A model generated the notes under the pieces. The model did no database searches. It was not told the origin of the DNA and worked only from the letters and a program-made list of their open reading frames with translations. The position numbers and the translations under genes were made by a program. A stretch of 64,000 nucleotides of DNA from Nostoc sp. DedSLP01. GTDB lineage: Bacteria; Cyanobacteriota; Cyanobacteriia; Cyanobacteriales; Nostocaceae. Shown here piece after piece: positions 13,581 to 62,571 of the stretch. How positions within the stretch are numbered: position 1 is the stretch's first letter; each line of letters begins with the position of its first letter. Where the stretch lies: assembly GCA_034530875.2 (NCBI GenBank), contig JAVRCJ020000005.1, positions 160,001 through 224,000 on the forward strand, read 5' to 3'.

Positions 13581-14340
13581 ATTTCAATCCCTAATAGGGA
13601 TTTTAGTTAATTGCAATGTGGTTTTTGGCGAAGTGCAATATTTACCGCGAAGTTTCAATCCCTAATAGGGATTTTAGTTAATTGCAATAGTAACAGGTCT
13701 AGGCGTTGCCATAGTTTCGCGCGTTTCAATCCCTAATAGGGATTTTAGTTAATTGCAATACGCGATCGCCTAATTTCAGATCCAGCTACCAACACGTTTC
13801 AATCCCTAATAGGGATTTTAGTTAATTGCAATGGGCATCGTGGGGATAAGATAGGCGATCGCTTCGGTTTCAATCCCTAATAGGGATTTTAGTTAATTGC
13901 AATTTTCGGTAATTTTTTCTTTAAGCCAAGATGCTATGTGTTTCAATCCCTAATAGGGATTTTAGTTAATTGCAATTTTGATGAGTTGGTGAATGTGGGC
14001 GTCGGCTAATTTGTTTCAATCCCTAATAGGGATTTTAGTTAATTGCAATTATCTCAATCGCTGGGGCGAAATCCTACAATAGCGGGTTTCAATCCCTAAT
14101 AGGGATTTTAGTTAATTGCAATTTTCTGATACTGGCAGCCTTTGGGTACTATTCAGGGTTTCAATCCCTAATAGGGATTTTAGTTAATTGCAATTTTTAT
14201 TAGCCTTAATACCTTCAATATCCCTGTGCTGGTTTCAATCCCTAATAGGGATTTTAGTTAATTGCAATTTTTTGGTTACGTTTTTTGACGCCGTTAACCG
14301 GTTGTTTCAATCCCTAATAGGGATTTTAGTTAATTGCAAT
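13581..14340 (-). CRISPR. Orphan CRISPR array, 11 repeats of 37 bp and 10 spacers of 34-37 bp; repeat (minus strand) ATTGCAATTAACTAAAATCCCTATTAGGGATTGAAAC, type I-D-like
   Basis: Repeats start at 13581 (one terminal mismatch, trailer end), 13652, 13723, 13796, 13867, 13940, 14013, 14086, 14158, 14232, 14304; internal AATCCCTA/TAGGGATT palindrome; GAAAC 3' end on minus strand. Subtype is inferred from the repeat only. Confidence 0.97.
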
Positions 14341-14570
14341 TGGCTGACGCCTGAAAGTGCTGCTATATTTAGTTTTCAAGGTTCTGTTGCGCGGATGGGC
14401 AAATCATAACACAACCGATGGTGATTTGACTAGACAAAAATCGTTGAAAGCTAGGCCAGATAAGGTGCGCGGATGGTTTTGAGAAGAAACCGCAGTCAAA
14501 TGCTTACATAGAGGGCAATTCAGCGATTTTTGTAGTTACCTGTTTACGAACACCTACCCATCCGCGCATT
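14341..14570 (-). promoter_or_regulatory. CRISPR leader with repeated TGCGCGGATGG motifs
   Basis: Adjacent to the non-degenerate end; TGCGCGGATGG at 14388 and 14466, inverted CCCATCCGCGCA at 14557-14568. Confidence 0.65.
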
Positions 14571-15600: not shown

Positions 15601-15684
15601 AAAAGCTAAGTAAAAAGTAAAAAATTCCTCTTTTACCTTTTACCTTAACGATAACCGCAACCAGGAGTGCAAAGATATTTGAGG

Positions 15685-15805
15685 ATTGGGAACTGGGGAC
15701 TGGTGACTGGGGATTAGGTACTAGTCAATAATTATTAGTTATTGTCCCACTACTTCCGATTTCCCCCAGTCCCCAGTCCCTAGTCACCAGTCACCAGTCA
15801 CCAAC
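15685..15805. repeat. Inverted pair of heptamer tandem repeats (GGGGACT / AGTCMCC)
   Basis: G-rich arm near 15685-15723 and complementary C-rich arm near 15762-15805, abutting the pilT stop. Confidence 0.85.
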
Positions 15806-20568: not shown

Positions 20569-20572
20569 ATAA

Positions 20573-20660
20573 GTGGGGAGTGGGGAGTGGGGAATAGGGA
20601 ATTGGGGAGATAAGGGAGAATAATAACTCCTAACTCTTAACTCCTCACTTAGCACTCCCA
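20573..20660. repeat. Inverted heptamer repeat pair between lexA and helicase
   Basis: (GTGGGGA)n arm followed by (ACTCCTA)-like arm. Confidence 0.8.
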
Positions 20661-25874: not shown

Positions 25875-26158
25875 AAGAATACACCCGTGATGGTAGAGAG
25901 GCTTTTATCCAAACAAAGATGATTCAGGATGCTGTGGTCAGAAATTTTGAGATTATTGGTGAAGCAACTAAAAGAATATCTCAGGATTTAAGGCAAACTT
26001 ATCCTGATGTGCAATGGAAACGTATAGCTGGATTTAGAGATGTGCTAATTCACGACTATCTACGAGTTGATTATGATGATGTTTGGGGAATTATTGAGCG
26101 TGATTTACCAGCTTTGAAAGCAAATATTCAGATGATTTTAAAAGATTTAGGTATGTAG
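25820..26158 (+). pseudogene. HEPN (DUF86) RNase toxin with damaged 5' end
   Basis: Frame reads ACG AGA GAA TAA then [18 protein letters not shown]...[16 protein letters not shown]...FRDVLIHDY; start lost and in-frame stop at 25829. Confidence 0.75.
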
Positions 26159-26226
26159 CGCAAAAAGCTTGTAGGCATCGCTTATAGCTTTCGGTTAATA
26201 TAGCTACACAGTAGATATTAAAGTCA

Positions 26227-26697
26227 ATGGCTGCAAATAGAATCAAGGTTGCTAAAGATAAAGCTGAGTTAGTGAAATCCTTAGTCGCATCAAAAGACAC
26301 AACAGGGCCTTTTCAAACTTATGTAGAAGTGATGGTATTTGCTGCTGCTTTAGGCGTTAGATATAAAAAGCGTATACCTTTAGGCGAAACTACAAAAAGA
26401 GAACCTTCTCCCATTCCACAAGAAAACTTTGTCTCGTTGGGACATGAGCTAATAATTAAATTATTGGGAATTAATGAAACACAAGATATAGAAATTATTT
26501 CTTCGCAACAAGAAGAATATGAAGATAAACGCACCCAAATTTTTGAAGAATACGCCAATGGAGGTCTAGAAATTTTACAAACCGAATTACGCGGAGCCGT
26601 AGATTATTCAGAGCGTATTCTTTTATTCTTAATTGCAGAAAAAGATAATAAAGAATCGATAGATGAAGAATTTGACCTGAGCAGATTTTTAAGTTAA
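26227..26697 (+). CDS. DNA phosphorothioation-associated protein 4 (PbeD-like)
   Basis: NRIKVAKDKAELVK...FAAALG...IFEEYANGGLEIL recognised family motifs; dnd context. Confidence 0.8.
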   Translation: MAANRIKVAKDKAELVKSLVASKDTTGPFQTYVEVMVFAAALGVRYKKRIPLGETTKREPSPIPQENFVSLGHELIIKLLGINETQDIEIISSQQEEYEDKRTQIFEEYANGGLEILQTELRGAVDYSERILLFLIAEKDNKESIDEEFDLSRFLS

Positions 26698-26721
26698 TTT
26701 TTAAGACTCATTTAAAGAATT

Positions 26722-27663
26722 ATGAAAACATTAGATTATTACTATAAATCTTTTTCTCAATTAAATGTAAGTAGTAGCAGTAAGCGTGGTAATGCTCACT
26801 ATAAACCAATATTGGTTTTAACTGTAATTGATTTGATAACACGAGGACTTATTAATGATAATCAAATTCCAGTCTCAGAAGAATTAATTGATACATTTGA
26901 GAGATACTGGAGTATTTTAGGCTCTAAATCTTATAAAGGTGGTTTGCATTATCCATTCTTACATCTACAAAGTGATAGTTTTTGGCACTTAATATTTAAA
27001 CCAGAGTTTAAGGGACTACAGCCAAAAACCACTAACAAGTTGAAAGAAGCTGTTGAATATGCTTATCTTGATGATGAACTATTTAATTTTTTACAAGATG
27101 AATCTTCCAGACAAGAATTAATTGATTCACTCGTAACAACTTTTTTTCAGGAACAGCAAGACGAATTTGAAGAGATTTTGCAAATTAACCGATCTTTTCA
27201 AGAAGATGACTTAGCTACAGAGAAATTAGCTGCCTCGACTAACTTAGATAATAATCCAAGGTGGGGTATTAGAAAGGCAGTGATTAGAAATGCTTTTTTT
27301 AGAAAAACTATCGTTCGTGTATATGATTCCAAATGTGCTTTTTGTGGCATTAGAGTAACTAAAGGTGCAAATCAAAATATTGTAGATGGCGCACACATCA
27401 AGCCTTTTGCACAATTCTATGACAGCAGAATCAATAATGGTATTGCTATTTGCAAAAATCACCATTGGGCTTTTGACCGTGGTTGGTTTACTGCTGATGA
27501 GCAGTATAAAATTATTGTTAGTAAAGAATTAGAAGAAATATCTCCTTACACTAAACGTATGAAAGATTTTCATGGCGAAAGCTTACTGTTGCCAAATAAA
27601 GAGCAATACTTTCCAGAAGTAGAAGCACTGAAATGGCATCGGCAAAATATATTTCAAAGGTAA
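26722..27663 (+). CDS. HNH endonuclease with putative N-terminal sulfur-binding (SBD-like) domain
   Basis: C-terminal CAFC...AHIKPF...NGIAICKNHHWAFD (HNH_2); N-terminal YKPILVL...YPFLHL...FWHL resembles SBD. Confidence 0.8.
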   Translation: MKTLDYYYKSFSQLNVSSSSKRGNAHYKPILVLTVIDLITRGLINDNQIPVSEELIDTFERYWSILGSKSYKGGLHYPFLHLQSDSFWHLIFKPEFKGLQPKTTNKLKEAVEYAYLDDELFNFLQDESSRQELIDSLVTTFFQEQQDEFEEILQINRSFQEDDLATEKLAASTNLDNNPRWGIRKAVIRNAFFRKTIVRVYDSKCAFCGIRVTKGANQNIVDGAHIKPFAQFYDSRINNGIAICKNHHWAFDRGWFTADEQYKIIVSKELEEISPYTKRMKDFHGESLLLPNKEQYFPEVEALKWHRQNIFQR

Positions 27664-29262
27664 TTACAACACAGGTGGAAGTCCTACTTCTTTTAGTTCC
27701 ACGAATTCACCATCAAAACCAATTGTTTTATTTTCCACAGTCCTAGCATTAGCCAAAGCCTTACGCAGTTCAGCACGTTCCATTGAATCTTCAATTCCGC
27801 CAAGGATGTAAATTAATAACTTTGTTGCTAATTCTTTTCCCGAAACCTGCACTCGCTTTTTATTAGCGTCATACAAAACCCCATACCAAAGAGACTGAGG
27901 ATATTCCATACCAGCAAAACCGCCTTGCTGGTCAAACTTTCGCAACTTCTTAAAAATACTGGTTATAGAAAAACCTTTTTTAAATACTAAAAATCCTAAA
28001 GCTTGTGCTAAAGCAACTTGCGCTACAGGACGGAAAAGTATATTTGCTTCGCCTCCACCTTTCTCAAAACTAAATCTTCGCAAAACAGGCGTATCTTCAT
28101 GTTCTAAAATTTTATAACTAGGCAAATTAGCCAAATTATCAAAAAGCTTTTTAAATTCCTCAATTCCTTGCTCAATTTCTTCATTTTCTGGACGCATGGG
28201 AATTAAACCTTTTTCCACTGGTTTCCAGTGTGGGAATTTTTGACCTAAATATCGCTCAGACATATCTTGTAGTGCTTGCAGTGTCGTCAAAACTGTAGAG
28301 TTTGCTGCTACAGTTGCACTATTCCAATTAACACGCGGGTTACGATTTAAACGTTGTTCTAAAAGTGGATGAGTCACTGCAATTTTTCTAGCCACAATAG
28401 AAAAACCATCATCTTCATTTAACTGTGCTAACTGGCCTTTAGTTAAAGGCGCAGCCATAAGGTTGACATGGACAAAAATCGACCTCACCCTTCTTCTAGC
28501 TTGGTTGCGAGTCTCTCCAGAATTTACTGCACAAATGAACTCAATACCAATTTTTTCTTTAGGTAAGCTTTGTAAATAAGCAGGATCTACTTGATACTGG
28601 TTTATCAAATCTGACACCGTAATAAAACTATCATCAGCAGTTTTATCTTTTTTATATCGCTGGAGTTTGCCAGTTTTTATTAACTCCATCAAACCCTGAA
28701 CTCCCATCAGCCGATGTTGACCATCTAGGGCATAAATGGTTACATTTTCTTCAGAAACATTGAGTAAGCCGACCTTACCATCTTTATCTAGAGGTGTAAA
28801 ATCTGTAGTAGATTTTGTGGCGCGTTCTTCACTGTCCCACTCAGATGCTTTAGGGTTATCCACCCAAGGTTGATTAATTACTACTAGCACTGCTGGAAAC
28901 TTATGATTTTTTCTAGCAGCTAAATACTGAACTAAGGGCGCTTGACGCGACCAGTCAACGGGACGTTGTTGAATTTCATCAATACTATCCGCATCAATTT
29001 CGATGTTATCTGTTTCTGGATTGTATTTTTTTTGTAGCAAAGGTAAACCAGAAGCAAAATGAACTCGGCCTGCGAACCATTCTAGGGTGACAGAACCAAC
29101 ATAAGCTTCACTTCCACCCATCTCAGTTTTTTGAACGAGAATTTGGTCTTTCTTTTCTAAAAATTTCTCTAGAAGTAAAGCTAGTACCTCTTTTTCCTTG
29201 TTTTCTCTCTCTAGGTACTCTCTAGCAATATCAGCAGTTAAGTCAGATGCAATGTCTCTCAT
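27664..29262 (-). CDS. DGQHR-domain (DndB-like) protein
   Basis: QRPVD, ALDGQHRL and FVHVN motifs; divergent from dndC. Confidence 0.88.
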   Translation of the reverse strand: MRDIASDLTADIAREYLERENKEKEVLALLLEKFLEKKDQILVQKTEMGGSEAYVGSVTLEWFAGRVHFASGLPLLQKKYNPETDNIEIDADSIDEIQQRPVDWSRQAPLVQYLAARKNHKFPAVLVVINQPWVDNPKASEWDSEERATKSTTDFTPLDKDGKVGLLNVSEENVTIYALDGQHRLMGVQGLMELIKTGKLQRYKKDKTADDSFITVSDLINQYQVDPAYLQSLPKEKIGIEFICAVNSGETRNQARRRVRSIFVHVNLMAAPLTKGQLAQLNEDDGFSIVARKIAVTHPLLEQRLNRNPRVNWNSATVAANSTVLTTLQALQDMSERYLGQKFPHWKPVEKGLIPMRPENEEIEQGIEEFKKLFDNLANLPSYKILEHEDTPVLRRFSFEKGGGEANILFRPVAQVALAQALGFLVFKKGFSITSIFKKLRKFDQQGGFAGMEYPQSLWYGVLYDANKKRVQVSGKELATKLLIYILGGIEDSMERAELRKALANARTVENKTIGFDGEFVELKEVGLPPVL

Positions 29263-29416: not shown

Positions 29417-31075
29417 ATGACTGAAGCACAACAACCAGAAAATAAAGGTCAGCAGACACGTACTGTAGCAGAGTTGGTAGAGTATATCCAAGTTCTTACC
29501 ACTGAAATTCAAGAATTGTATTGTTTAGATGCGATACCTTGGGTTGTTGGTTATTCGGGCGGCAAGGACAGCACGGCGACTTTACAGCTTGTTTGGAATG
29601 CAATACTGGGACTGCCACTAGAAAAGCGAACTAAGCCAATTCATGTCATTACAACTGATACAGGTGTAGAAAATCCTTATGTAGCTGCTTGGGTACGCAA
29701 CTCATTAGAGCAAATGAAAATAGCAGCTCAAGACCAAAAGATGCCAGTGGAACCGCATTTATTACAACCAGAGATTAAACAAACATACTGGGTGGGTTTA
29801 ATTGGGAAAGGCTACCCAGCACCACGTCATAAATTCCGTTGGTGTACTGGACGATTAAAAATTGACCCATCTAACCTTTTTATTCGTAATGTTATTAGAG
29901 CTAGCGGCGAAACAATTGTTTTATTAGGAACTCGCAAAACTGAAAGTGTCAATCGTGCTACTATCATGTCAAAACGTGAAGTAGGTAGAGTGCGGGAGCG
30001 TCTTAGCCCTCATCCCAGCCTTGTTAACTCATTGCTTTATACTCCTATAGAAGATTGGCGAACTGATGAAGTTTGGCTGTATTTAATGCAATGGAATAAT
30101 CCTTGGGAATATAGCAATAAAGATTTATTTGCTATGTATCGAGGTGCAACAGCAGATAATGAATGTCCTTTAGTTGTTGATACTTCTACCCCTAGTTGTG
30201 GTAGCTCTCGTTTTGGATGCTGGGTCTGCACACTAGTTAATAGTGATAGGTCTATGCAAGCGATGATTCAAAATGATGAGGAAAAAGAATGGCTACAACC
30301 TTTAATTGATATTCGTTTAGAGGAATTAGATATTGATAACGACCGTGAGAAACGAGACTTCCGCCGCATTTGGGGAGAAGTCCAACTATTTGAGCGTAAC
30401 TTGGATGGAGAAATTTCTATTGAACCAATACCAGGCCCTTACGTTAAATCTTGGCGCGAACATTTATTAAGACGACTTTTAGAAGCGCAAACAAAAATTC
30501 GTCAAACAGCACCAGAAAATATGCGCGATATTAACCTTATCTCTCTGGAAGAATTGAGCGAAATTCGCCGTATTTGGTTAGAAGAAAAACACGAGTTTGA
30601 CGATAGCTTACCCCGCATTTATCAAGAGGTCACAGGTGAAGAATTTAAAGACCCACGTCCAGGTGCAGACCTTAGCTTATTAGGTAGCGATGAATGGGCT
30701 GTGTTAGAAGAAGTCTGTGCAGATGATGAAATGCATTTAGAACTGATGGCGAAACTGTTAGACACAGAACGCCAATTTCGGAAAATGTCGCGTCGTATAG
30801 GAATTTACGAAAGCTTGGAAAAATGCTTTACTACCAGTTCTCGTTCTAAAGATGAAGCAGTGAGAAATGCTCATCTAAAACGAGATTTGAAAACAGCAGT
30901 TGAACAAGGTGATATTGAAAAAGTCAAACAATTAACTTTAGCAGATTTTGTTGCACCAGAGGAACAAACAACTACACCAGATACACAAATTGAGACAACA
31001 AATACTACAAAATCTGCTGACAATGACAAGACTTGGGCAAATGTGAAATTTAAAAATAAACAGGCAAAGCCTTAA
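29417..31075 (+). CDS. dndC: DNA phosphorothioation sulfurtransferase DndC
   Basis: GYSGGKDS PP-loop, GKGYPAP, RWCT, ECPLVVD...CGSSRFGCWVC. Confidence 0.95.
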   Translation: MTEAQQPENKGQQTRTVAELVEYIQVLTTEIQELYCLDAIPWVVGYSGGKDSTATLQLVWNAILGLPLEKRTKPIHVITTDTGVENPYVAAWVRNSLEQMKIAAQDQKMPVEPHLLQPEIKQTYWVGLIGKGYPAPRHKFRWCTGRLKIDPSNLFIRNVIRASGETIVLLGTRKTESVNRATIMSKREVGRVRERLSPHPSLVNSLLYTPIEDWRTDEVWLYLMQWNNPWEYSNKDLFAMYRGATADNECPLVVDTSTPSCGSSRFGCWVCTLVNSDRSMQAMIQNDEEKEWLQPLIDIRLEELDIDNDREKRDFRRIWGEVQLFERNLDGEISIEPIPGPYVKSWREHLLRRLLEAQTKIRQTAPENMRDINLISLEELSEIRRIWLEEKHEFDDSLPRIYQEVTGEEFKDPRPGADLSLLGSDEWAVLEEVCADDEMHLELMAKLLDTERQFRKMSRRIGIYESLEKCFTTSSRSKDEAVRNAHLKRDLKTAVEQGDIEKVKQLTLADFVAPEEQTTTPDTQIETTNTTKSADNDKTWANVKFKNKQAKP

Positions 31076-31317
31076 GCTTGCTCATTATCATCGTCAGCAT
31101 CTCCCAAGTACAGCCTGATAAAATCTTCGGCTGCGGCGGGATTAATTTTCTTGAGTGCGTCACGAATTTCTAACAGCGTATCAGCAACAGGATCTCTAAT
31201 TTCATTCACCCAACGGTGAACATTTGGCCGTCCCGTTCCCATTGCCACTGCTAACTTGTTTTGGCTGATGCTGTATGTTTCTAACACCTGTTTGAGTGCT
31301 TTTCCTGCTTTTCCCAT
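31072..31317 (-). CDS. XRE-family HTH regulator
   Basis: LKQVLETYSISQNKLAVAMGTGRPNVHRWVNEIRDP; start reassigned to ATG at 31317. Confidence 0.85.
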   Translation of the reverse strand: MGKAGKALKQVLETYSISQNKLAVAMGTGRPNVHRWVNEIRDPVADTLLEIRDALKKINPAAAEDFIRLYLGDADDDNEQA

Positions 31318-31354
31318 GCCTTTGATTGTGTCAAAGGCTTCTGACAGAGTAAAT

Positions 31355-31407
31355 GTTACCCATCGGTAACTAAAGGTGTAAGATAGTGTTGTTGCCAATA
31401 GGTAACA
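31355..31407. promoter_or_regulatory. Tandem palindromic operators GTTRCC-N4-GGTAAC
   Basis: GTTACC-CATC-GGTAAC (31355-31370) and GTTGCC-AATA-GGTAAC (31391-31406) between divergent genes. Confidence 0.65.
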
Positions 31408-31438
31408 GCGCAGCTTATCAACAAACAGGTAAATTTCA

Positions 31439-31693
31439 ATGAGTACAAGCTTTCTAGCAGACACTTGTCAAACCACCACGCCGCTTGTTTCCATCAAGGA
31501 TTTTACAGAAACAACACCAGATAGAGAGTCTGTAAAAGTAGTAATTTATGGTTCTAAAAGAGGAGTTAACAACACAATCTTGACTTTATACAAACTTGGT
31601 TTCGCCCAAGTTAACGAGTGGAGTCCTTTATTACCTAGTTCTAACCCTGGTGAAGTTATGAGTATTTTAACTAGACACATTCTGACAAACTAA
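31439..31693 (+). CDS. Small hypothetical protein divergent from XRE gene
   Basis: 84-aa ORF with protein-like composition (LYKLGFAQVNEWSPLLP...GEVMSIL). Confidence 0.7.
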   Translation: MSTSFLADTCQTTTPLVSIKDFTETTPDRESVKVVIYGSKRGVNNTILTLYKLGFAQVNEWSPLLPSSNPGEVMSILTRHILTN

Positions 31694-31806: not shown

Positions 31807-33792
31807 ATGATATTTCTAGAACTCGTATTACAAAATTTTGGCCCTTACTCAGGCAGACAAGTAATCAATCTTGACCCAAGAACTGAAGAAAATCCTCGCC
31901 CAATTCTCTTATTAGGCGGTATGAATGGCGGCGGTAAAACTACTCTCATGGATGCTATTCGTCTTGCCCTATATGGACAACGCGCCCAATGCTCAACGCG
32001 TGGAAATTTGAGCTATAGTGATTTTTTAAATCAATGTGTTAATAGTAAAGCTAATCCTGCTGAAAAGACGCGAGTTGAGTTACTATTTGAACACATTGAA
32101 GAGGATAAGCCAATAAAATATCGTATTGTTAGAACTTGGGAAAAAAATCCTAAAGATGGTAAAGATGCTCTAGGAATTTTAGGCGATGACGATACTTGGC
32201 CTGTTGAATCTTTGGTGAATACTTGGGATGACTATATAGAAAATCTACTGCCTTTAGGGATTTCTAATTTATTTTTATTTGATGGCGAACAAGTTAAAGA
32301 ATTGGCAGAACAAGAAACACCACCACAACTTGTTATTGAAGCTATTCGCGGACTATTAGGGCTAGAGTTGGCAGACAAATTAGCACTTGATTTGGAGGTT
32401 TTAGTCAACCGCAAGCGTAGAGAAATGGCTGATACTAAAGATTTAGCCAACCTAGAAGAAATTGAAAAAAGGTTATTACAACAGCAAGAAGATTATCAAG
32501 AGGTAGAACAAAAATTAGTTAGTTTCAAAAATCAAATTGAAGAATTAGAGGCTATTCAACGAGAAGCCTTAGATAAATTTGTATCTGAAGGTGGTAAAAT
32601 CGCTGGAGAACGCAGTCAGTTAGAAGAAAAACAAAAAGAAAAAACTACTGCATTAGAAACAATTCGGCAGTCGTTGTGTGAATTAGCTGCTGATATTTTG
32701 CCTTTAGCCTTAATTCCTAATTTATTAAGTCAGGTAGAAGTACAGGGAGCAAATGAATTTCGCAATCAGCAGGTGCAACTTGCCAGAGATGTTTTGCTTG
32801 AGCGAGATAAACGCTTACTTGAATGGCTAAGTCAGTTAGCGATCGCCTCAACACAAATGGACAAAATTCAATCATTTTTAGCTGAGGATGTTGATAATTT
32901 ATATGCAAGTTCGCTCCAAGCTGAAGTACCTTGGTTATTAGCTGACGAGGAAAGTTTGAGTCAACTAGATAATGTGAGATATCATTTACAAAATGCTCGT
33001 AATTTAGCAAAACAGCAGTTAGGTAATCTCAGGAATCTAGAAGAGGAAATTATTACGTTAGAAAGACAAGTGCAGACAGCCGCAGAACCAGAAGCTTATC
33101 AAATATTGCGGGATGCTGTGGACGCAGCACAAAATGAAGTTGTACAAGCTAAAGCAAATTACGAAACAACTCGCCAAAGATTAGCAGTATTAACAGATGC
33201 AATTGATATAACTAAAAAAGAATTAAAAGATTATACTGATAAAAATATAGACCATAAAAATAGGGAACATATCATTACCTCAGCCTCTAAAGTTCAAGAA
33301 ACACTTAAGGTTTTTCGAGAAAAATTAACACTGCGAAAACTCAATAAATTAGAGGAAGAAGTGAAGAATTGTTTCCTCTATCTACTGCATAAATCGGATT
33401 TAGTATTTCGTATTGCTATTGATACTAAAACCTTTGCCTTATCTTTATTCGATTTCGATGGGAAACCAGTTCCCAAACATCGCCTTTCGGCTGGTGAAAA
33501 ACAACTTCTGGCGATCGCCTTTCTCTGGGGACTTGCCAAAGTCTCTGGCCTGCGCTTACCCGTAGCCATCGACACGCCTCTTGGCAGACTCGACTCTTCC
33601 CACCGGAACAACCTAGTAGAAAAATACTTCCCTGCCGCTAGCCATCAAGTAATTCTGCTTTCTACTGATACTGAAATTGGTAAAAAGGAAGTGGAAACAT
33701 TAAGGAAAAATGAAGCGATCGCTCGTGAATATCTCCTCAAATACGACTCCGCTACCCGCCAAACAACTATACAAGCAGGCTATTTTTGGTAA
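31807..33792 (+). CDS. dndD: DNA sulfur modification ATPase DndD
   Basis: GGMNGGGKTT, LFLFDGEQ, LSAGEKQ, IDTPLGRLDSSHR, ILLSTDTEI. Confidence 0.95.
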   Translation: MIFLELVLQNFGPYSGRQVINLDPRTEENPRPILLLGGMNGGGKTTLMDAIRLALYGQRAQCSTRGNLSYSDFLNQCVNSKANPAEKTRVELLFEHIEEDKPIKYRIVRTWEKNPKDGKDALGILGDDDTWPVESLVNTWDDYIENLLPLGISNLFLFDGEQVKELAEQETPPQLVIEAIRGLLGLELADKLALDLEVLVNRKRREMADTKDLANLEEIEKRLLQQQEDYQEVEQKLVSFKNQIEELEAIQREALDKFVSEGGKIAGERSQLEEKQKEKTTALETIRQSLCELAADILPLALIPNLLSQVEVQGANEFRNQQVQLARDVLLERDKRLLEWLSQLAIASTQMDKIQSFLAEDVDNLYASSLQAEVPWLLADEESLSQLDNVRYHLQNARNLAKQQLGNLRNLEEEIITLERQVQTAAEPEAYQILRDAVDAAQNEVVQAKANYETTRQRLAVLTDAIDITKKELKDYTDKNIDHKNREHIITSASKVQETLKVFREKLTLRKLNKLEEEVKNCFLYLLHKSDLVFRIAIDTKTFALSLFDFDGKPVPKHRLSAGEKQLLAIAFLWGLAKVSGLRLPVAIDTPLGRLDSSHRNNLVEKYFPAASHQVILLSTDTEIGKKEVETLRKNEAIAREYLLKYDSATRQTTIQAGYFW

Positions 33793-33823
33793 TTCGTAAT
33801 TCGTAATTCGTAATTCGTAATTA
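33790..33823. repeat. Left heptamer arm (TAATTCG)4 TAATTA
   Basis: First unit contains the dndD TAA; last partial unit contains the antisense gene stop. Confidence 0.95.
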
Positions 33824-34177
33824 TTTGGCTTTGAGTCGTTTGGTGGAAGCAACTAGAATTTTGCCAATTTCGTTTGCTTCTTGAAGGAGTCCTTGAAATT
33901 TGTGTCTATCTACTAGTTCGGATTCCATTAATATTTCTAACCAGTATTGTGTTTCTCTTGCTTCTTTTAAAGCAATTTCTAATTTATTGATAAAATCTTT
34001 ACTAGATTGGGCAGACTGTGATTCTCGGACATTTGCACCAATCGAAGTACCGGAACGCAGTAATTGTTTAGACAGGATTCGATGAACTCCAGGTTTTTCA
34101 TCTAAAAAGCAACAAGCTTTAACAATTCTTACCGCAAAATTTTTTGTTCTGTCAGTAATACTACTATTAGTTCCCAT
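33821..34177 (-). CDS. Four-helix bundle protein (23S rRNA IVS protein / Avd-like family)
   Basis: KQLLRSGTSIGANVRE...DFINKLEIALKEARETQYWL family motif. Confidence 0.9.
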   Translation of the reverse strand: MGTNSSITDRTKNFAVRIVKACCFLDEKPGVHRILSKQLLRSGTSIGANVRESQSAQSSKDFINKLEIALKEARETQYWLEILMESELVDRHKFQGLLQEANEIGKILVASTKRLKAK

Positions 34178-34247
34178 ATTTTTCTTTTAAATCATAATAT
34201 CTATGCTTCCCACATCTAAAACAAAAACTAGAATCTCAGCCTAAACC

Positions 34248-34294
34248 AATTACGAATCACGAATTACAAATTACGAATTACGAATTACGAATTA
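34248..34294. repeat. Right heptamer arm (AATTACG)6 AATTA, inverse complement of the left arm
   Basis: Six units (two variant); ends 1 nt before the dndE ATG. Confidence 0.95.
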
Positions 34295-34295
34295 T

Positions 34296-34682
34296 ATGGA
34301 ATCGCCAATCGAAAGAATAAAACTTTCCCAAACAGCCAAAGACCAACTTCTCAAACTCAGACGCACTACCAAAATAGACCAATGGAATATCCTCTGTCGT
34401 TGGGCATTTTGTCGTTCCCTCGCAGAACCAACTCCACCCTCGCCCGTACCAATTCCCCAAGATAGCAACGTCGAAATGACTTGGCGCGTCTTTGGCGGCG
34501 AAATGTCCGATATTCTCCTCCTCGCCCTCAAACAACGCTGTCACAATGACGGCTATGACACTGACAAAGAAACCCTCGCCACCCAATTCCGCCTGCATTT
34601 GCATCGCGGTATCGGGTACTTAGCAGGCGATCAAAATATCAAGAAAATTGAAGATTTAATAGAACTAGCTATCAAAGATTGA
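34296..34682 (+). CDS. dndE: DNA sulfur modification protein DndE
   Basis: IKLSQTAKDQLLKL...WNILCRWAFCRSL...FRLHLHRGIGYL; follows dndD. Confidence 0.93.
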   Translation: MESPIERIKLSQTAKDQLLKLRRTTKIDQWNILCRWAFCRSLAEPTPPSPVPIPQDSNVEMTWRVFGGEMSDILLLALKQRCHNDGYDTDKETLATQFRLHLHRGIGYLAGDQNIKKIEDLIELAIKD

Positions 34683-34685
34683 AAG

Positions 34686-34880
34686 GATATTAGTTAACTG
34701 TTAACCGTGCCAATTTTAGATTTTAGATTTTAGATTATTTCAGTTCATGCCCTGCCCTTTGTGGGCAGAACAATCCAAAATCCAAAATTTAAAATCCTCA
34801 AACCCACACCCAGAGTGGTCTGCTTCAATCCAAAATCCAAAATTTAAAATCCAAAATCGATTGACTGTTAACTGATATTA
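34686..34880. repeat. Nested inverted-repeat spacer flanked by direct repeat GATATTA
   Basis: Outer arms 34687-34704 and 34861-34878; inner (TTTTAGA)n and (AAAATCC)n arms; GATATTA at 34686 and 34874. Confidence 0.8.
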
Positions 34881-36337
34881 TGCCTGAAGCATTAGAAATC
34901 GATCGCCATCGAGCTGCGATCGCTCGCAATGATATCTCCCGCCCCGTGCGATTGGCAATAGAATGGGCAATTCTGCATCAAGACACCACTTTTTTTGACT
35001 ACGGTTGCGGCTACGGTGGTGATGTGCAGCGAGTAGCAAACTTGGGCTACACCAGCGCAGGCTGGGATCCTTACTACTATCCTGATGTCCCACGCACTCC
35101 CGCCGATGTCGTCAATTTGGGCTACGTTCTCAACGTTATCGAAGATGCAGAGGAACGCCGTCAAAGCCTCATCCAAGCTTGGGAACTCACGCAGCAAGTT
35201 TTAATTGTCGCAGCTCAAGTTTTAGTTAATGCTCCCAGTAAAACTCAGGTGGCTTACAACGATGGCATTGTCACCCGTCGCAACACTTTTCAGAAATATT
35301 ACGAACAAGAAGAACTTAAAACATACATTGATGAAGTGCTCAATGTGGATGCGGTGCCCGTAGCGTTGGGTGTGTACTTTGTTTTTCGAGATGAAGCTCA
35401 AAAAGAAAGTTACAAAGCTATCCGCTTCTTTTCTACTTCTTCTACACCGCGAGTCCGTATTCCTACCAAGCGGTTTGAAGATTACCAAGAACAACTGCAA
35501 CCACTCATGGCTTTTTTTACCAAGCGCGGTAGGTTGCCTGTAAAAGGCGAATTGGAAAACGAACAAGAATTACTCAAGGAATTTGGTAACTTCCGCCGTG
35601 CCTTTGGCGTAGTTTTACAAGCTACCGATGAAGCAGAATGGGATGCGATCGCCTATCGTCGTTCTCTAGATATCCAAGTATATCTCGCCCTCACCCACTT
35701 CGATCGCCGCCCTGCATGGCAGAAGCTATCGCCCGAAATGCGCCACGACATCAAAGCCTTTTTTAGTAGCTACGAAGAAGCCTGCCAAGTCGCCGACCAA
35801 AAACTTTTCAGCTTAGGCAAAACTGGGGTGATTCAAACTGCTTGTGAAAAAAGCAAAATTGGTAAACGTACGCGCGGTGCCCTTTACGTGCATGTTTCGG
35901 CGCTTGCAGCACTCGATCCTTTGCTGCGAATTTACGAGGGCTGCGCTAGCCGCACTATTGGGCGTGTAGATGGAGCCACGTTGATAAAATATCACATTGA
36001 TAAACCGCAAATATCCTATCTTTTTTACCCAGAATTTGATACTGACCCCCATCCAGCTTTACAAGCAAGTATAGGTATTGACTTAAAAACCCTAGCTGTT
36101 ACTCACCGAGAATATGAAACTAGAGCAAATCCACCAATTTTGCACCGGAAAGAAACATTTGTTACTAGTACATACCCGCGTTACGAAGAATTTGTTAAAC
36201 TCACCCAACAAGAAGAGGAATTAGGATTGCTCAAAGGCAAAAGCGATATCGGCACTCGTGATGGTTGGGAAAAATGCCTTGCCGCACACAAAGTAGAAAT
36301 CAGAGGGCATGAGGTTTATTCAATTAAGGAAAATTAA
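34880..36337 (+). CDS. DNA phosphorothioation-associated putative methyltransferase
   Basis: DYGCGYGGD SAM motif, WDPYY, NLGYVLNVIE, TFQKYY, NPPILHRKE; follows dndE. Confidence 0.88.
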   Translation: MPEALEIDRHRAAIARNDISRPVRLAIEWAILHQDTTFFDYGCGYGGDVQRVANLGYTSAGWDPYYYPDVPRTPADVVNLGYVLNVIEDAEERRQSLIQAWELTQQVLIVAAQVLVNAPSKTQVAYNDGIVTRRNTFQKYYEQEELKTYIDEVLNVDAVPVALGVYFVFRDEAQKESYKAIRFFSTSSTPRVRIPTKRFEDYQEQLQPLMAFFTKRGRLPVKGELENEQELLKEFGNFRRAFGVVLQATDEAEWDAIAYRRSLDIQVYLALTHFDRRPAWQKLSPEMRHDIKAFFSSYEEACQVADQKLFSLGKTGVIQTACEKSKIGKRTRGALYVHVSALAALDPLLRIYEGCASRTIGRVDGATLIKYHIDKPQISYLFYPEFDTDPHPALQASIGIDLKTLAVTHREYETRANPPILHRKETFVTSTYPRYEEFVKLTQQEEELGLLKGKSDIGTRDGWEKCLAAHKVEIRGHEVYSIKEN

Positions 36338-50295: not shown

Positions 50296-51621
50296 TTAAG
50301 CGATACAGGAATTAATCAAATCTTCAACGCCTGCCACTGGTAAGATATTTGTCTGCAATTTACTTGCTAATTCTTCAACACTCATATCATCCAAAAATAC
50401 CAATTCACCATGCTTTAACATCACCTTTGGTAGCAAAATCCCATCGCCTAAATCTTCCCCTGCTAGATGCAAAAGCAAGTCATGACCAGTTAATAATCCT
50501 GTGACGCTAATCTCCTGTCCCCAGTAATCACTAGATAAAGCACGCATATTTACTTCCAAACCTTCAACCGAATTTAAGCGCTGTAAAATCGGTTGAAATG
50601 CTTTTTCGACAGTGTTACCGACTACCCAAGTAAATTGTCTCTGAGGATAGACTTTTGGTGGTAGTAATTCTGCCGCAGCGGTGGCAAATTGTTTGATAAA
50701 TAATTGAATCGAACCAACGCCGTTATCTATTTGAGGATATTCTTCATATTCAGATTCGCTTGGTAATTCTTCACCTGCAATTAAAAACCACTCATCGGCT
50801 AACCAAGCAACGTTAGAGCCGAATTTTTGGCGAAATTGTTGCGAAAGCATTTTGACTTGGGAAATCACTTCTTTAGCTTTTTCTCTAGTTACGGGTGTGA
50901 GTTCATCTTCTTGGGGACGAAATCGTGTTAACCCAACGGGTACAACTGCAACTGACGCAACTGTAGGCACTTCACCAGTATGGAAGGAGGCTAAATCTTT
51001 AAGAGTTTGTTCCAGATGTTTGCCATCATTGATGCCAGGACAAACAACTACTTGGGCATGAATTTGTAGCCGTCTTTGTTGAAACCACTTGAGTTGTTGT
51101 AAAATTTGACCCGCACGTGGATTTTTTAGCAATCTAATTCTCAGTTCAGGTTCCGTAGCATGAACGGAAACATACAATGGAGACAAACGCATCTGTTCGA
51201 TGCGCCGCCATTCTCTTTCTGGTAGATTGGTCAGAGTAAGATAAGAGCCGTACAAAAAGCTCAAACGATAATCATCGTCTTTCAAATACAAGCTAGAACG
51301 CTTACCTGGTGGCTGTTGGTCGATAAAGCAAAACGGACAGCGGTTATTGCACTGAATTAAGCCATCAAAGAGAGCAGTTTCAAATTCTAAACCTAAATCT
51401 TGGTCGTAGTCTTTTTCGATTTCAATGTGATGGGTTTTACCAGCAGCGTCTAAAACTTCTAATTCTAAAACTTCATCAGCACATAAAAATTGATAATCAA
51501 TTAAATCGCGGGGACGCGTACCATTAATAGCAACGATCGCATCCCCCGCCTCAAAGCCAATCTCTGCGGCTATAGAATCAGGTAAAACTCTAGTAATACG
51601 GGCAGGTTGAATGGTAGACAT
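50296..51621 (-). CDS. PDZ-domain radical-SAM-like Fe-S protein (TIGR03279/DUF512-like)
   Basis: N-terminal PDZ, CNNRCPFC motif, KDDDYRLSFLYG; start reassigned to ATG at 51621 because the upstream extension is repeat-derived. Confidence 0.88.
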   Translation of the reverse strand: MSTIQPARITRVLPDSIAAEIGFEAGDAIVAINGTRPRDLIDYQFLCADEVLELEVLDAAGKTHHIEIEKDYDQDLGLEFETALFDGLIQCNNRCPFCFIDQQPPGKRSSLYLKDDDYRLSFLYGSYLTLTNLPEREWRRIEQMRLSPLYVSVHATEPELRIRLLKNPRAGQILQQLKWFQQRRLQIHAQVVVCPGINDGKHLEQTLKDLASFHTGEVPTVASVAVVPVGLTRFRPQEDELTPVTREKAKEVISQVKMLSQQFRQKFGSNVAWLADEWFLIAGEELPSESEYEEYPQIDNGVGSIQLFIKQFATAAAELLPPKVYPQRQFTWVVGNTVEKAFQPILQRLNSVEGLEVNMRALSSDYWGQEISVTGLLTGHDLLLHLAGEDLGDGILLPKVMLKHGELVFLDDMSVEELASKLQTNILPVAGVEDLINSCIA

Positions 51622-51704
51622 GGGAATAGGGCATGGGGCATTGGGCATTGGCGATTCATTAATGACCAATGACTAATGACTAGTGACTAATAACTATTAT
51701 GTAA

Positions 51705-61556: not shown

Positions 61557-61722
61557 TGGGGAATGGGGAATGGGGAATGGGGAATGGGGAATGGAGAATG
61601 GGGCATGGGGAATGGGGCATGGGGAATGGGTGCTAGAAAGTAATTGTAAATATTTAGTTCCTAGTCCCCAGTCACCAGTCCCTAGTCCCTAATCCCCATT
61701 CCCTACTCCCTACTCCCCACTC
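61557..61722. repeat. Inverted heptamer repeat pair filling the btpA-VKOR spacer
   Basis: (TGGGGAA)n arm at 61557-61630 and (AGTCCCT/ACTCCCT)n arm at 61657-61722. Confidence 0.9.
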
Positions 61723-62571
61723 CTAAGAATGTAATTTCACTTGTCCTGCTGACTTGCTTTCACTTTTAGAGTTCCAACTGCGACGTGCGGCTTCCACAAA
61801 TTGACTGACGCGAATCGGGTCAATTGGTTGGTCTATCCGTCCGTGACGTTTCAAGGAACTGGAGACTATGACACCATCTGCTGCTTGCATCAGGGTATCA
61901 ATATTTTCCCAATTTGCTCCACTACCAATAAAAACAGGCACTCCAGCTGCGGCACCGCAAGCTAATTCCAAATCTTCTAAGTTAGGAGGGCTACCAGTAG
62001 CCCAACCAGACAAAATTACCCCGTCTGCTAAACCTCTTTCGATGGTGTCTTTTACGGCGACTGTGAGATTTGGAGAACTCAAAGGACGGGCGTGTTTTAC
62101 CAACACATCGGCTAGGATTTTAACATCGCTGCCTAACTCCCGTCGATAGCGCAGTAATTGATGGGCTTCTCCTTCAATTAATCCCTGGTCGGTTGCCATC
62201 ACGCCTGTGAGGACGTTGACGCGGATAAATTGTGCTTGGACGCAGCTAGCGATCGCCAATGCACTTTTGGCGTCGTTTCGCAACACATTTAACCCTATTG
62301 GCAATGTCACTAAGTTCTGTATCCGCTGTACCACAATGGTCATGGCACTCACAACCACTGGATCTACTTGGTTTTTAGTAAACGGCGCATCGAAAAAATT
62401 CTCTACAATTATGCCGTCAACCCCTCCACTTGCCAAGGCTACGGCTTCTTGTTCGGCGCGGTCAATTACCGCTTTTAGGCTACCTCCCCAACGAGGTGAG
62501 GTTGGCAGTGGTAAAAGGTGAACCACGCCAATAATCGGTGAGCGAGTTTTAAATAGCTGATATAAGTCCAC
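61723..62571 (-). CDS. btpA: Photosystem I biogenesis protein BtpA
   Basis: IGVVHLLPLP, VENFFDAPF, NVLRND, ADVLVKH. Confidence 0.92.
   Translation of the reverse strand: MDLYQLFKTRSPIIGVVHLLPLPTSPRWGGSLKAVIDRAEQEAVALASGGVDGIIVENFFDAPFTKNQVDPVVVSAMTIVVQRIQNLVTLPIGLNVLRNDAKSALAIASCVQAQFIRVNVLTGVMATDQGLIEGEAHQLLRYRRELGSDVKILADVLVKHARPLSSPNLTVAVKDTIERGLADGVILSGWATGSPPNLEDLELACGAAAGVPVFIGSGANWENIDTLMQAADGVIVSSSLKRHGRIDQPIDPIRVSQFVEAARRSWNSKSESKSAGQVKLHS

Follow-up and report, generated by a model that had tools for sequence, protein, structure and literature searches.

The phosphorothioation (dnd) cluster of Nostoc sp. DedSLP01 lies within a 64,000-nucleotide stretch of contig JAVRCJ020000005.1 (positions 160,001 to 224,000, assembly GCA_034530875.2), hereafter the window, whose first letter is position 1. 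Between dndD and dndE, a gene for a four-helix-bundle protein runs antisense to its neighbors, enclosed by inverted TAATTCG arrays that begin at the dndD stop and leave a single nucleotide before the dndE start (Table 1). The left arm opens with the dndD stop (33790-33792), its last two bases fall within the stop of the antisense gene (33821-33823), and 33790-33822 is complementary to 34262-34294 over 33 nt with one mismatch. A sequence-only reading of this DNA had described these arms, overlapping stops and near-perfect pairing, and repeat and inverted-match analysis confirmed the layout. The ends of the cassette are thus complementary and able to form a stem, as in intervening sequences (IVS), and equally constitute terminal inverted repeats of the kind found in IS and MITE elements. 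Folding of the 551-nt region gives −132.6 kcal/mol (z −5.65), a value matched by none of 100 shuffles.

Table 1. Features at and around the dndD-dndE junction of the window.
Feature	Positions	Strand	Remarks
DGQHR/DndB-like gene	27664..29262	-	context; PF14072, TIGR03187
dndC	29417..31075	+	context; TIGR03183
dndD	31807..33792	+	host gene; TIGR03185, E 7e-235; its TAA opens the left arm
Left arm	33790..33822	+	(TAATTCG)4 TAATT
Four-helix-bundle gene	33821..34177	-	118 aa; PF05635/TIGR02436; intact; under purifying selection
AT-rich leader, right arm to gene start	34178..34247	-	promoter-like sites not above chance (4 vs 2.5 ± 1.6 in shuffles)
Right arm	34248..34294	+	6.7 copies of AATTACG (90%), including two variant units; separated from the dndE ATG by 1 nt
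dndE	34296..34682	+	host gene; PF08870, TIGR03184
Gene-less inverted heptamer arrays 3′ of dndE	34713..34858	+	ATTTTAG, then two AATCCAA runs
dnd-associated methyltransferase	34880..36337	+	context; TIGR04096

Several other features of the window were recorded. The dndC-dndD gap (31072-31693) holds a second insert in the dnd operon, a divergent pair consisting of a 130-aa HTH gene on the minus strand and an 84-aa ORF on the plus strand without a family match. Upstream of the dnd genes (25919-27663) are a HepT-like RNase, dnd-associated protein 4, and a phosphorothioate-binding HNH endonuclease. A CRISPR-like array with a repeat of about 37 nt and a period of 71-73 occupies 13582-14341, and gene-less heptamer array pairs of several units are found at 15683-15803, 20572-20649, 51621-51696, and 61557-61723, in addition to those at 34713-34858.

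The product of the antisense gene matches PF05635 (E 9.6e-25, 87.3 bits; curated cut-off 33.8) and TIGR02436 (E 3.4e-30, 104.5 bits; curated cut-off 24) and is 50% identical to PDB 2RLD. Its predicted model contains four helices (pLDDT 93) and superposes on 2RLD with a TM of 0.84 and an rmsd of 1.5, displaying the fold shared by 2RLD and 2GSC, two entries with five chains each. The model also weakly matches Avd of diversity-generating retroelements (DGR; 4DWL, TM 0.71, 15% identity), and 7 of 25 family members match the PHROG "Avd protein of DGR", the window protein itself giving no such match. The resemblance of PF05635 to Avd has been noted before (PMC10053308), and Avd has been described as an RNA-binding protein required by its RT (bioRxiv 2023.10.23.563531). 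The family identity proposed from sequence alone, and with it the kinship to Avd and to the IVS protein, was therefore upheld by the family matches and the fold. Residues Q38, S45, N49, E52, and E75 are invariant across the 25 aligned members; we know of no catalytic activity for the four-helix-bundle fold. Among codons with a single difference, pairwise counts at window-type loci gave 956 synonymous and 322 non-synonymous changes, the former three times as common, and the gene is under purifying selection.

Comparison with relatives reveals how variable the junction is. dndE is present in 195 of 201 family genomes, and the region preceding it was read in 150, the dndD end being in reach in 116 and outside the stretch read in 34 (some cut by contig ends). 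Fixation of the gene at this site, which would have spoken against the sequence-only reading, was not observed: ten of the 116 Nostocaceae genomes carry a family gene there, from two distant subfamilies that occupy the same dndD stop. Five carriers, in five genera, are of the window type, antisense with TAATTCG arms; the other five belong to the distant subfamily with TAATTGG-like arms, four in sense and one in antisense orientation. The sister genomes G090 and G032 share one gene, with a single substitution between the two copies, which are oppositely oriented. Another 36 of the 116 display different inserts longer than 400 nt, often a MazF-like toxin pair, and eight have gaps of at most 20 nt, two of which are a one-unit scar (TAA TTCGT ATG). 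Many relatives possess gene-less heptamer hairpins of other units, again extending from stop to start, and the related strains of RNA runs X1, X5, and X6 have about 10 kb between dndD and dndE (window 33767-34296). The junction is a general insertion hot spot.

Its other occupants were also noted. A MazF-like toxin with a small upstream ORF, often decayed, is found at L014:1915-2507 and many other dndD-dndE junctions. Repeats of about 9 nt (CTCTGCGCC-like) fill the junction in about 30 genomes by rough label, including L020, L034, L039, L085, L093, L104-L106, and L276. At L294 (G022), the junction carries a hybrid hairpin with a left arm of the TAATTCG type and a right arm of the CCAATCA type.

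On the dndD tree, window-type carriers are interspersed with non-carriers, and their cassette genes form one group (quick tree, support 87). Identity to the window ranges from 82 to 95% for the gene and from 84 to 93% for dndE, the two diverging in step. Because gene identity follows dndE identity and the carriers' genes group together, the cassette at this junction is one old insertion retained patchily; some lineages have inherited it vertically, while most have lost it or had it replaced.

The association of gene and arms extends well beyond dnd. The source genome encodes six PF05635-family genes, five of which, judged by eye, are flanked on both sides by heptamer runs, each of a different unit, while the upstream side of the sixth is cut by an ISL3 fragment. 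Arms were scored as the best inverted match between the 250-nt flanks, with a threshold of at least 14, at 128 family loci remaining after identical genes were collapsed and short-flank loci dropped. The threshold was reached at 99 of these: 4/6 in the source genome, 25/28 in Nostocaceae, 24/24 in named cyanobacteria, 24/42 in other phyla, and 22/28 in a phylum sample. Of 1,105 small ORFs from the source genome, 12 reached it, three being family genes, which leaves 9 of 1,101 others; the family loci are best hits and their kin (14 from the dndD-dndE site), such that the counts overstate independence, and the control represents one genome. The prediction that family members would be arm-flanked far more often than other genes was accordingly borne out.

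The arm unit, moreover, follows the gene tree, with 4 changes among 49 close genes compared with at least 12 in 200 shuffles. Of 201 genomes, 20 contain a rare AAGTCGG triple, and three of them (G158, G171, and G189) have it nowhere but at the cassette locus. The 53 close-clade loci fall into 28 flank clusters, and the gene-arm link recurs at loci of Bacteroidota, Balneolota, and Chlamydiota; arms and gene evidently travel together. Many of 58 cassette sites are joints of housekeeping or defense operons, the former including atpA-atpG, groES-groEL, rimP-nusA, dnaK-dnaJ, and tmk-holB. Neither a transposase nor an RT travels with the cassette, as had been proposed for the transposase: no RT was found among 115 neighbors of the 58 sites, and a transposase or integrase adjoins five, from four different families, with no recurrent cognate transposase. 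Other small repeat elements are inserted inside cassette arms or leaders at L047, L050, L059, L069, and L138.

Gene-less arrays of heptamers, repeats termed STRR in cyanobacteria, share the polarity of the arms. Nearby TAATTCG arrays form 10 inward and 0 outward pairs, and GGGACTG arrays 8 and 0; such inverted doublets are over-represented in extragenic DNA, as REPINs are. Across 814 arrays of 12 units, each unit assigned a direction on the basis of cassettes or hairpins, the left-arm reading occurs after stops in 150 cases versus 14 and the right-arm reading before starts in 69 versus 8; a single unit entered in the wrong direction accounts for 9 and 2 of these exceptions, respectively. Given this polarity, ordinary genes lie outside hairpins and the PF05635 family inside. 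TAATTCG arrays begin at TAATTCG in 65 of 90 cases, wherever located, and end in TAATT in 62 of 90; the leading TAA therefore belongs to the arm. Hairpins occur in 65 of 623 convergent gaps (10%), 149 of 1,841 co-directional gaps (8%), and 8 of 389 divergent gaps, the similar share in the first two indicating that they follow gene ends and not operon joints. TAATTCG triples have a median of 49 per genome with a cognate cassette versus 3 without, and at least 19 matches are present in 15 of 16 genomes with a cognate cassette versus 40 of 185 others, counts that include the cassette's own arms and come from related, non-independent genomes.

One could argue that these arrays merely decorate a host-function gene spread by ordinary horizontal transfer, having arisen by slippage near gene ends, and that their inverted pairs flip and delete through general recombination. 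Nostoc genomes are full of heptamer arrays, including genomes that lack the cognate gene (the richest in TAATTCG, with 739 matches, has no close gene at E 1e-20), the X-Y-X shape of the arrays is that expected from slippage, and the dndD-dndE copy combines long vertical retention with purifying selection. We consider passive decoration unlikely, however, in light of the rarity of arm-enclosed small genes outside the family, the opposite placement of ordinary and PF05635-family genes relative to hairpins, and an arm unit that follows the gene tree in a link found again in three other phyla.

The sequence-only reading had regarded the unit as a transposase-free mobile or IVS-like element that loops itself out of the mRNA. 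On this account, the arms would pair in the dndD-dndE transcript, joining stop and start and coupling dndE translation, or would permit RNase III excision as in rRNA intervening sequences. The strong stem is consistent with such a role, as are its nearly perfect state at 14 genomes over up to 18% divergence, the many cassettes between co-directional genes of housekeeping operons, the genome-wide position of arrays after stops and before starts, and the eight relatives with short gaps. A stem acting in mRNA should nevertheless display its mismatches as G·U on the mRNA strand, and the window arm duplex is weaker on the plus strand (−40.8 kcal/mol) than on the minus strand (−47.5 kcal/mol), the two variant units of the right arm giving G·U only on the latter. 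Among the 149 gene-less co-directional hairpins, the mRNA strand contains 179 G·U versus 236 A·C, a deviation in the wrong direction (p 0.006). On the gene's strand, 94 cyanobacterial cassettes have no G·U bias (70 versus 82); at non-cyanobacterial loci, mismatches lean to G·U (30 versus 17), which fits an RNA stem. Hairpins are also as common in convergent as in co-directional gaps, 36 of 116 relatives tolerate other long, armless inserts at this junction, the strains of the RNA runs lack the window allele and have about 10 kb there, and cassettes additionally reside inside broken genes. Looping out to keep dndD and dndE coupled is therefore improbable, and of the original proposal the mobile unit finds support and the loop-out coupling does not; a local effect on dndE may exist. 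The absence of a Shine-Dalgarno-like word before dndE, cited in its favor, is true of the window but not special, since 130 of 140 cassette-free relatives likewise lack one.

Events at other sites illustrate how the cassette changes. Both orientations were found at four sites. At the PBP1A/DUF4335 site, between convergent genes, four of 15 copies are flipped, and a flank tree of the 11 long-flank copies implies four separate flips, a single clade being rejected (p-AU 3e-6); the interior thus inverts repeatedly. Before obgE, the 30 loci include four with a near-full gene between arms, two with a partial gene, and three with arms only, their gene stubs fused at a short repeat. This decay series shows that empty hairpins can derive from cassettes, lending support to the earlier suggestion that the cassette is their gene-carrying form. 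At L356-L385, also before obgE, the stop of the upstream gene is TAG or TGA according to the heptamer family that follows.

Five copies reside inside recD2 (L056, L058, L142, L144, and L154), three of them 95-96% identical. All nine of their recD2 junctions lie no more than about 6 nt from an arm end, the codons differing from copy to copy (about 407|452, 119|639, 27|541, 95|507, and 269|unrelated DNA), and comparison with intact copies of 70-95% identity shows that host DNA is missing or replaced there. No target-site duplication of the kind left by IS and MITE elements was detected at the recD2 junctions; at dndD-dndE, a short AATT duplication would be indistinguishable from the arm unit. 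Codons 407-452 belong to every missing interval, as expected if nested deletions had proceeded outward from a single insertion, although separate DNA-replacing insertions would look alike; under either history, the arm ends mark the breakpoints. Arm ends thus abut replaced or deleted host DNA without target duplication. L159 retains 47 nt more flank than its sister copies. In L065 (G014:C229), the cassette sits at the center of a perfect inverted extension of at least 224 nt outside the arms, as fold-back copying would be expected to give. G014 has seven family matches, several of them near contig ends.

The explanation we lean toward, as somewhat better than an even bet, is that the window contains an old copy of a many-site cassette of gene and arms that flips, decays to empty hairpins, and, while encoding no transposase, likely moves and rearranges at the DNA level by way of its arm ends; whatever influence it has on dndE translation would then be incidental. 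That the unit is present, flipped, swapped, or gutted in relatives is what points to a transposase-free mobile DNA element, and the cassette is a likely source of unexplained bacterial 7-base repeats. We envision that the arms fold back in single-stranded DNA and are linked to target DNA by host repair or recombination at the cost of some bases, while recombination between the arms would flip the interior. Outward deletions would trim the flanks until halted at a needed host codon, which would account for arms that touch stop and start; the arm's own TAA can serve as a stop. The presumably pentameric, Avd-like protein may bind arm nucleic acid as an accessory factor for spread, a role suggested by its constant presence inside the arms, the clade-specific unit, purifying selection, and kinship to nucleic-acid-binding Avd.

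Several observations sit less comfortably with mobile DNA. The copy at dndD-dndE is old and not recently mobile, 40 of 185 genomes are rich in TAATTCG arrays with no cognate cassette identified, and inversion and deletion beside inverted repeats can be passive. The G·U lean on the gene's strand in non-cyanobacterial loci would fit RNA better, and the sites compared yielded neither a transposition event nor an excised circle, nor any clean pair of filled and empty sites in near-identical strains.

A retro-type element has also been considered, in which cassette RNA closed by its arms is bound by the Avd-like pentamer and a borrowed RT, encoded elsewhere, makes cDNA that inserts at heptamer-like sites and seeds arrays. 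The structural match to Avd 4DWL, the family members matching the Avd PHROG, and the requirement of the DGR RT for RNA-binding Avd are in keeping with this idea, as are two RT genes in the source genome (one on C12 and one 167 kb away on C5) and an arm unit that, at both cassette types, resembles the 3′ end of dndD (TTGGTAA). We give it little credence, given that no RT is among the neighbors scanned, the window protein has no Avd PHROG match, the cyanobacterial cassettes have no G·U bias on the gene's strand, and flips and flank deletions are DNA events.

Returning to mobile DNA, we tentatively advance a bolder version, which we would sooner expect to fail than to hold: PF05635 would be the missing trans-acting factor of heptamer repeats, with its own heptamer per lineage, and the pentamer, perhaps through Q38, S45, N49, E52, and E75, would drive cutting, joining, or copying at the arm ends. 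The cassette would then represent a new class of mobile DNA in its autonomous form. If so, empty hairpins and single arms, numbering hundreds per genome, would belong to that class; rRNA intervening sequences would be one landing site, with the gene-arm link explaining the source of those that bear ORFs; and interior flipping would switch the gene's expression. Heptamers beside stops and starts are abundant in cyanobacteria, Xanthomonas, Beggiatoaceae, and Bacteroidota, and PF05635 is common, with solved structures and no assigned function. Linking the two offers a gene with invariant residues and a cognate sequence, as well as three events that can be scored (flip, flank deletion, and new insertion), thereby rendering the origin of the heptamers and the function of PF05635 both testable in laboratory Nostoc or E. 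coli.

Several known systems share features with the cassette. ORF-bearing IVS of 23S rRNA (S23p; Coxiella, Leptospira) contain the same family inside a complementary-ended unit. According to Warrier et al. (2016, PMC4990558), IVS are cut by RNase III, S23p is of unknown function, and the elements are, like the cassette, sporadic and horizontally acquired with an ORF that often decays. The cassette differs in residing between or inside protein genes in either orientation, in its heptamer-array arms, and in its flips and flank deletions; the window copy lies between dndD and dndE instead of in rRNA and gives no Rfam match at the gathering level. REPIN/RAYT systems (Bertels and Rainey 2011, PMC3116915) similarly comprise many gene-less inverted extragenic doublets and few gene copies tied to the repeat, with a repeat type for each gene lineage. 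Cassette arms, however, are tandem heptamers and not palindromic REPs, and the gene encodes an all-helical PF05635 protein without the tyrosine (HUH) transposase domain of RAYTs. Avd has the same fold, with pentameric relatives in 2RLD and 2GSC; unlike a DGR, the cassette has no RT beside it in the window or among the 115 flanking ORFs, and no template/variable repeat pair was found within 33000-35000, where the longest direct repeat is 27 nt of heptamers. A literature search that excluded subscription papers retrieved no title or abstract joining the PF05635 family to heptamer arms, and a cassette that carries an IVS-family gene, lies outside rRNA, and ends in heptamer arrays is real and recurrent, and apparently undescribed in print. 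Heptamers themselves have been reported to end about 1 nt before starts or near stops on one strand, and to form inverted pairs, their origin and mechanism being left unexplained and no helix-bundle gene being named in the portions of Rehm et al. (PMC4692102) and MacGregor (PMC4679880) consulted, whereas in the present case the arrays terminate a unit that carries a gene.
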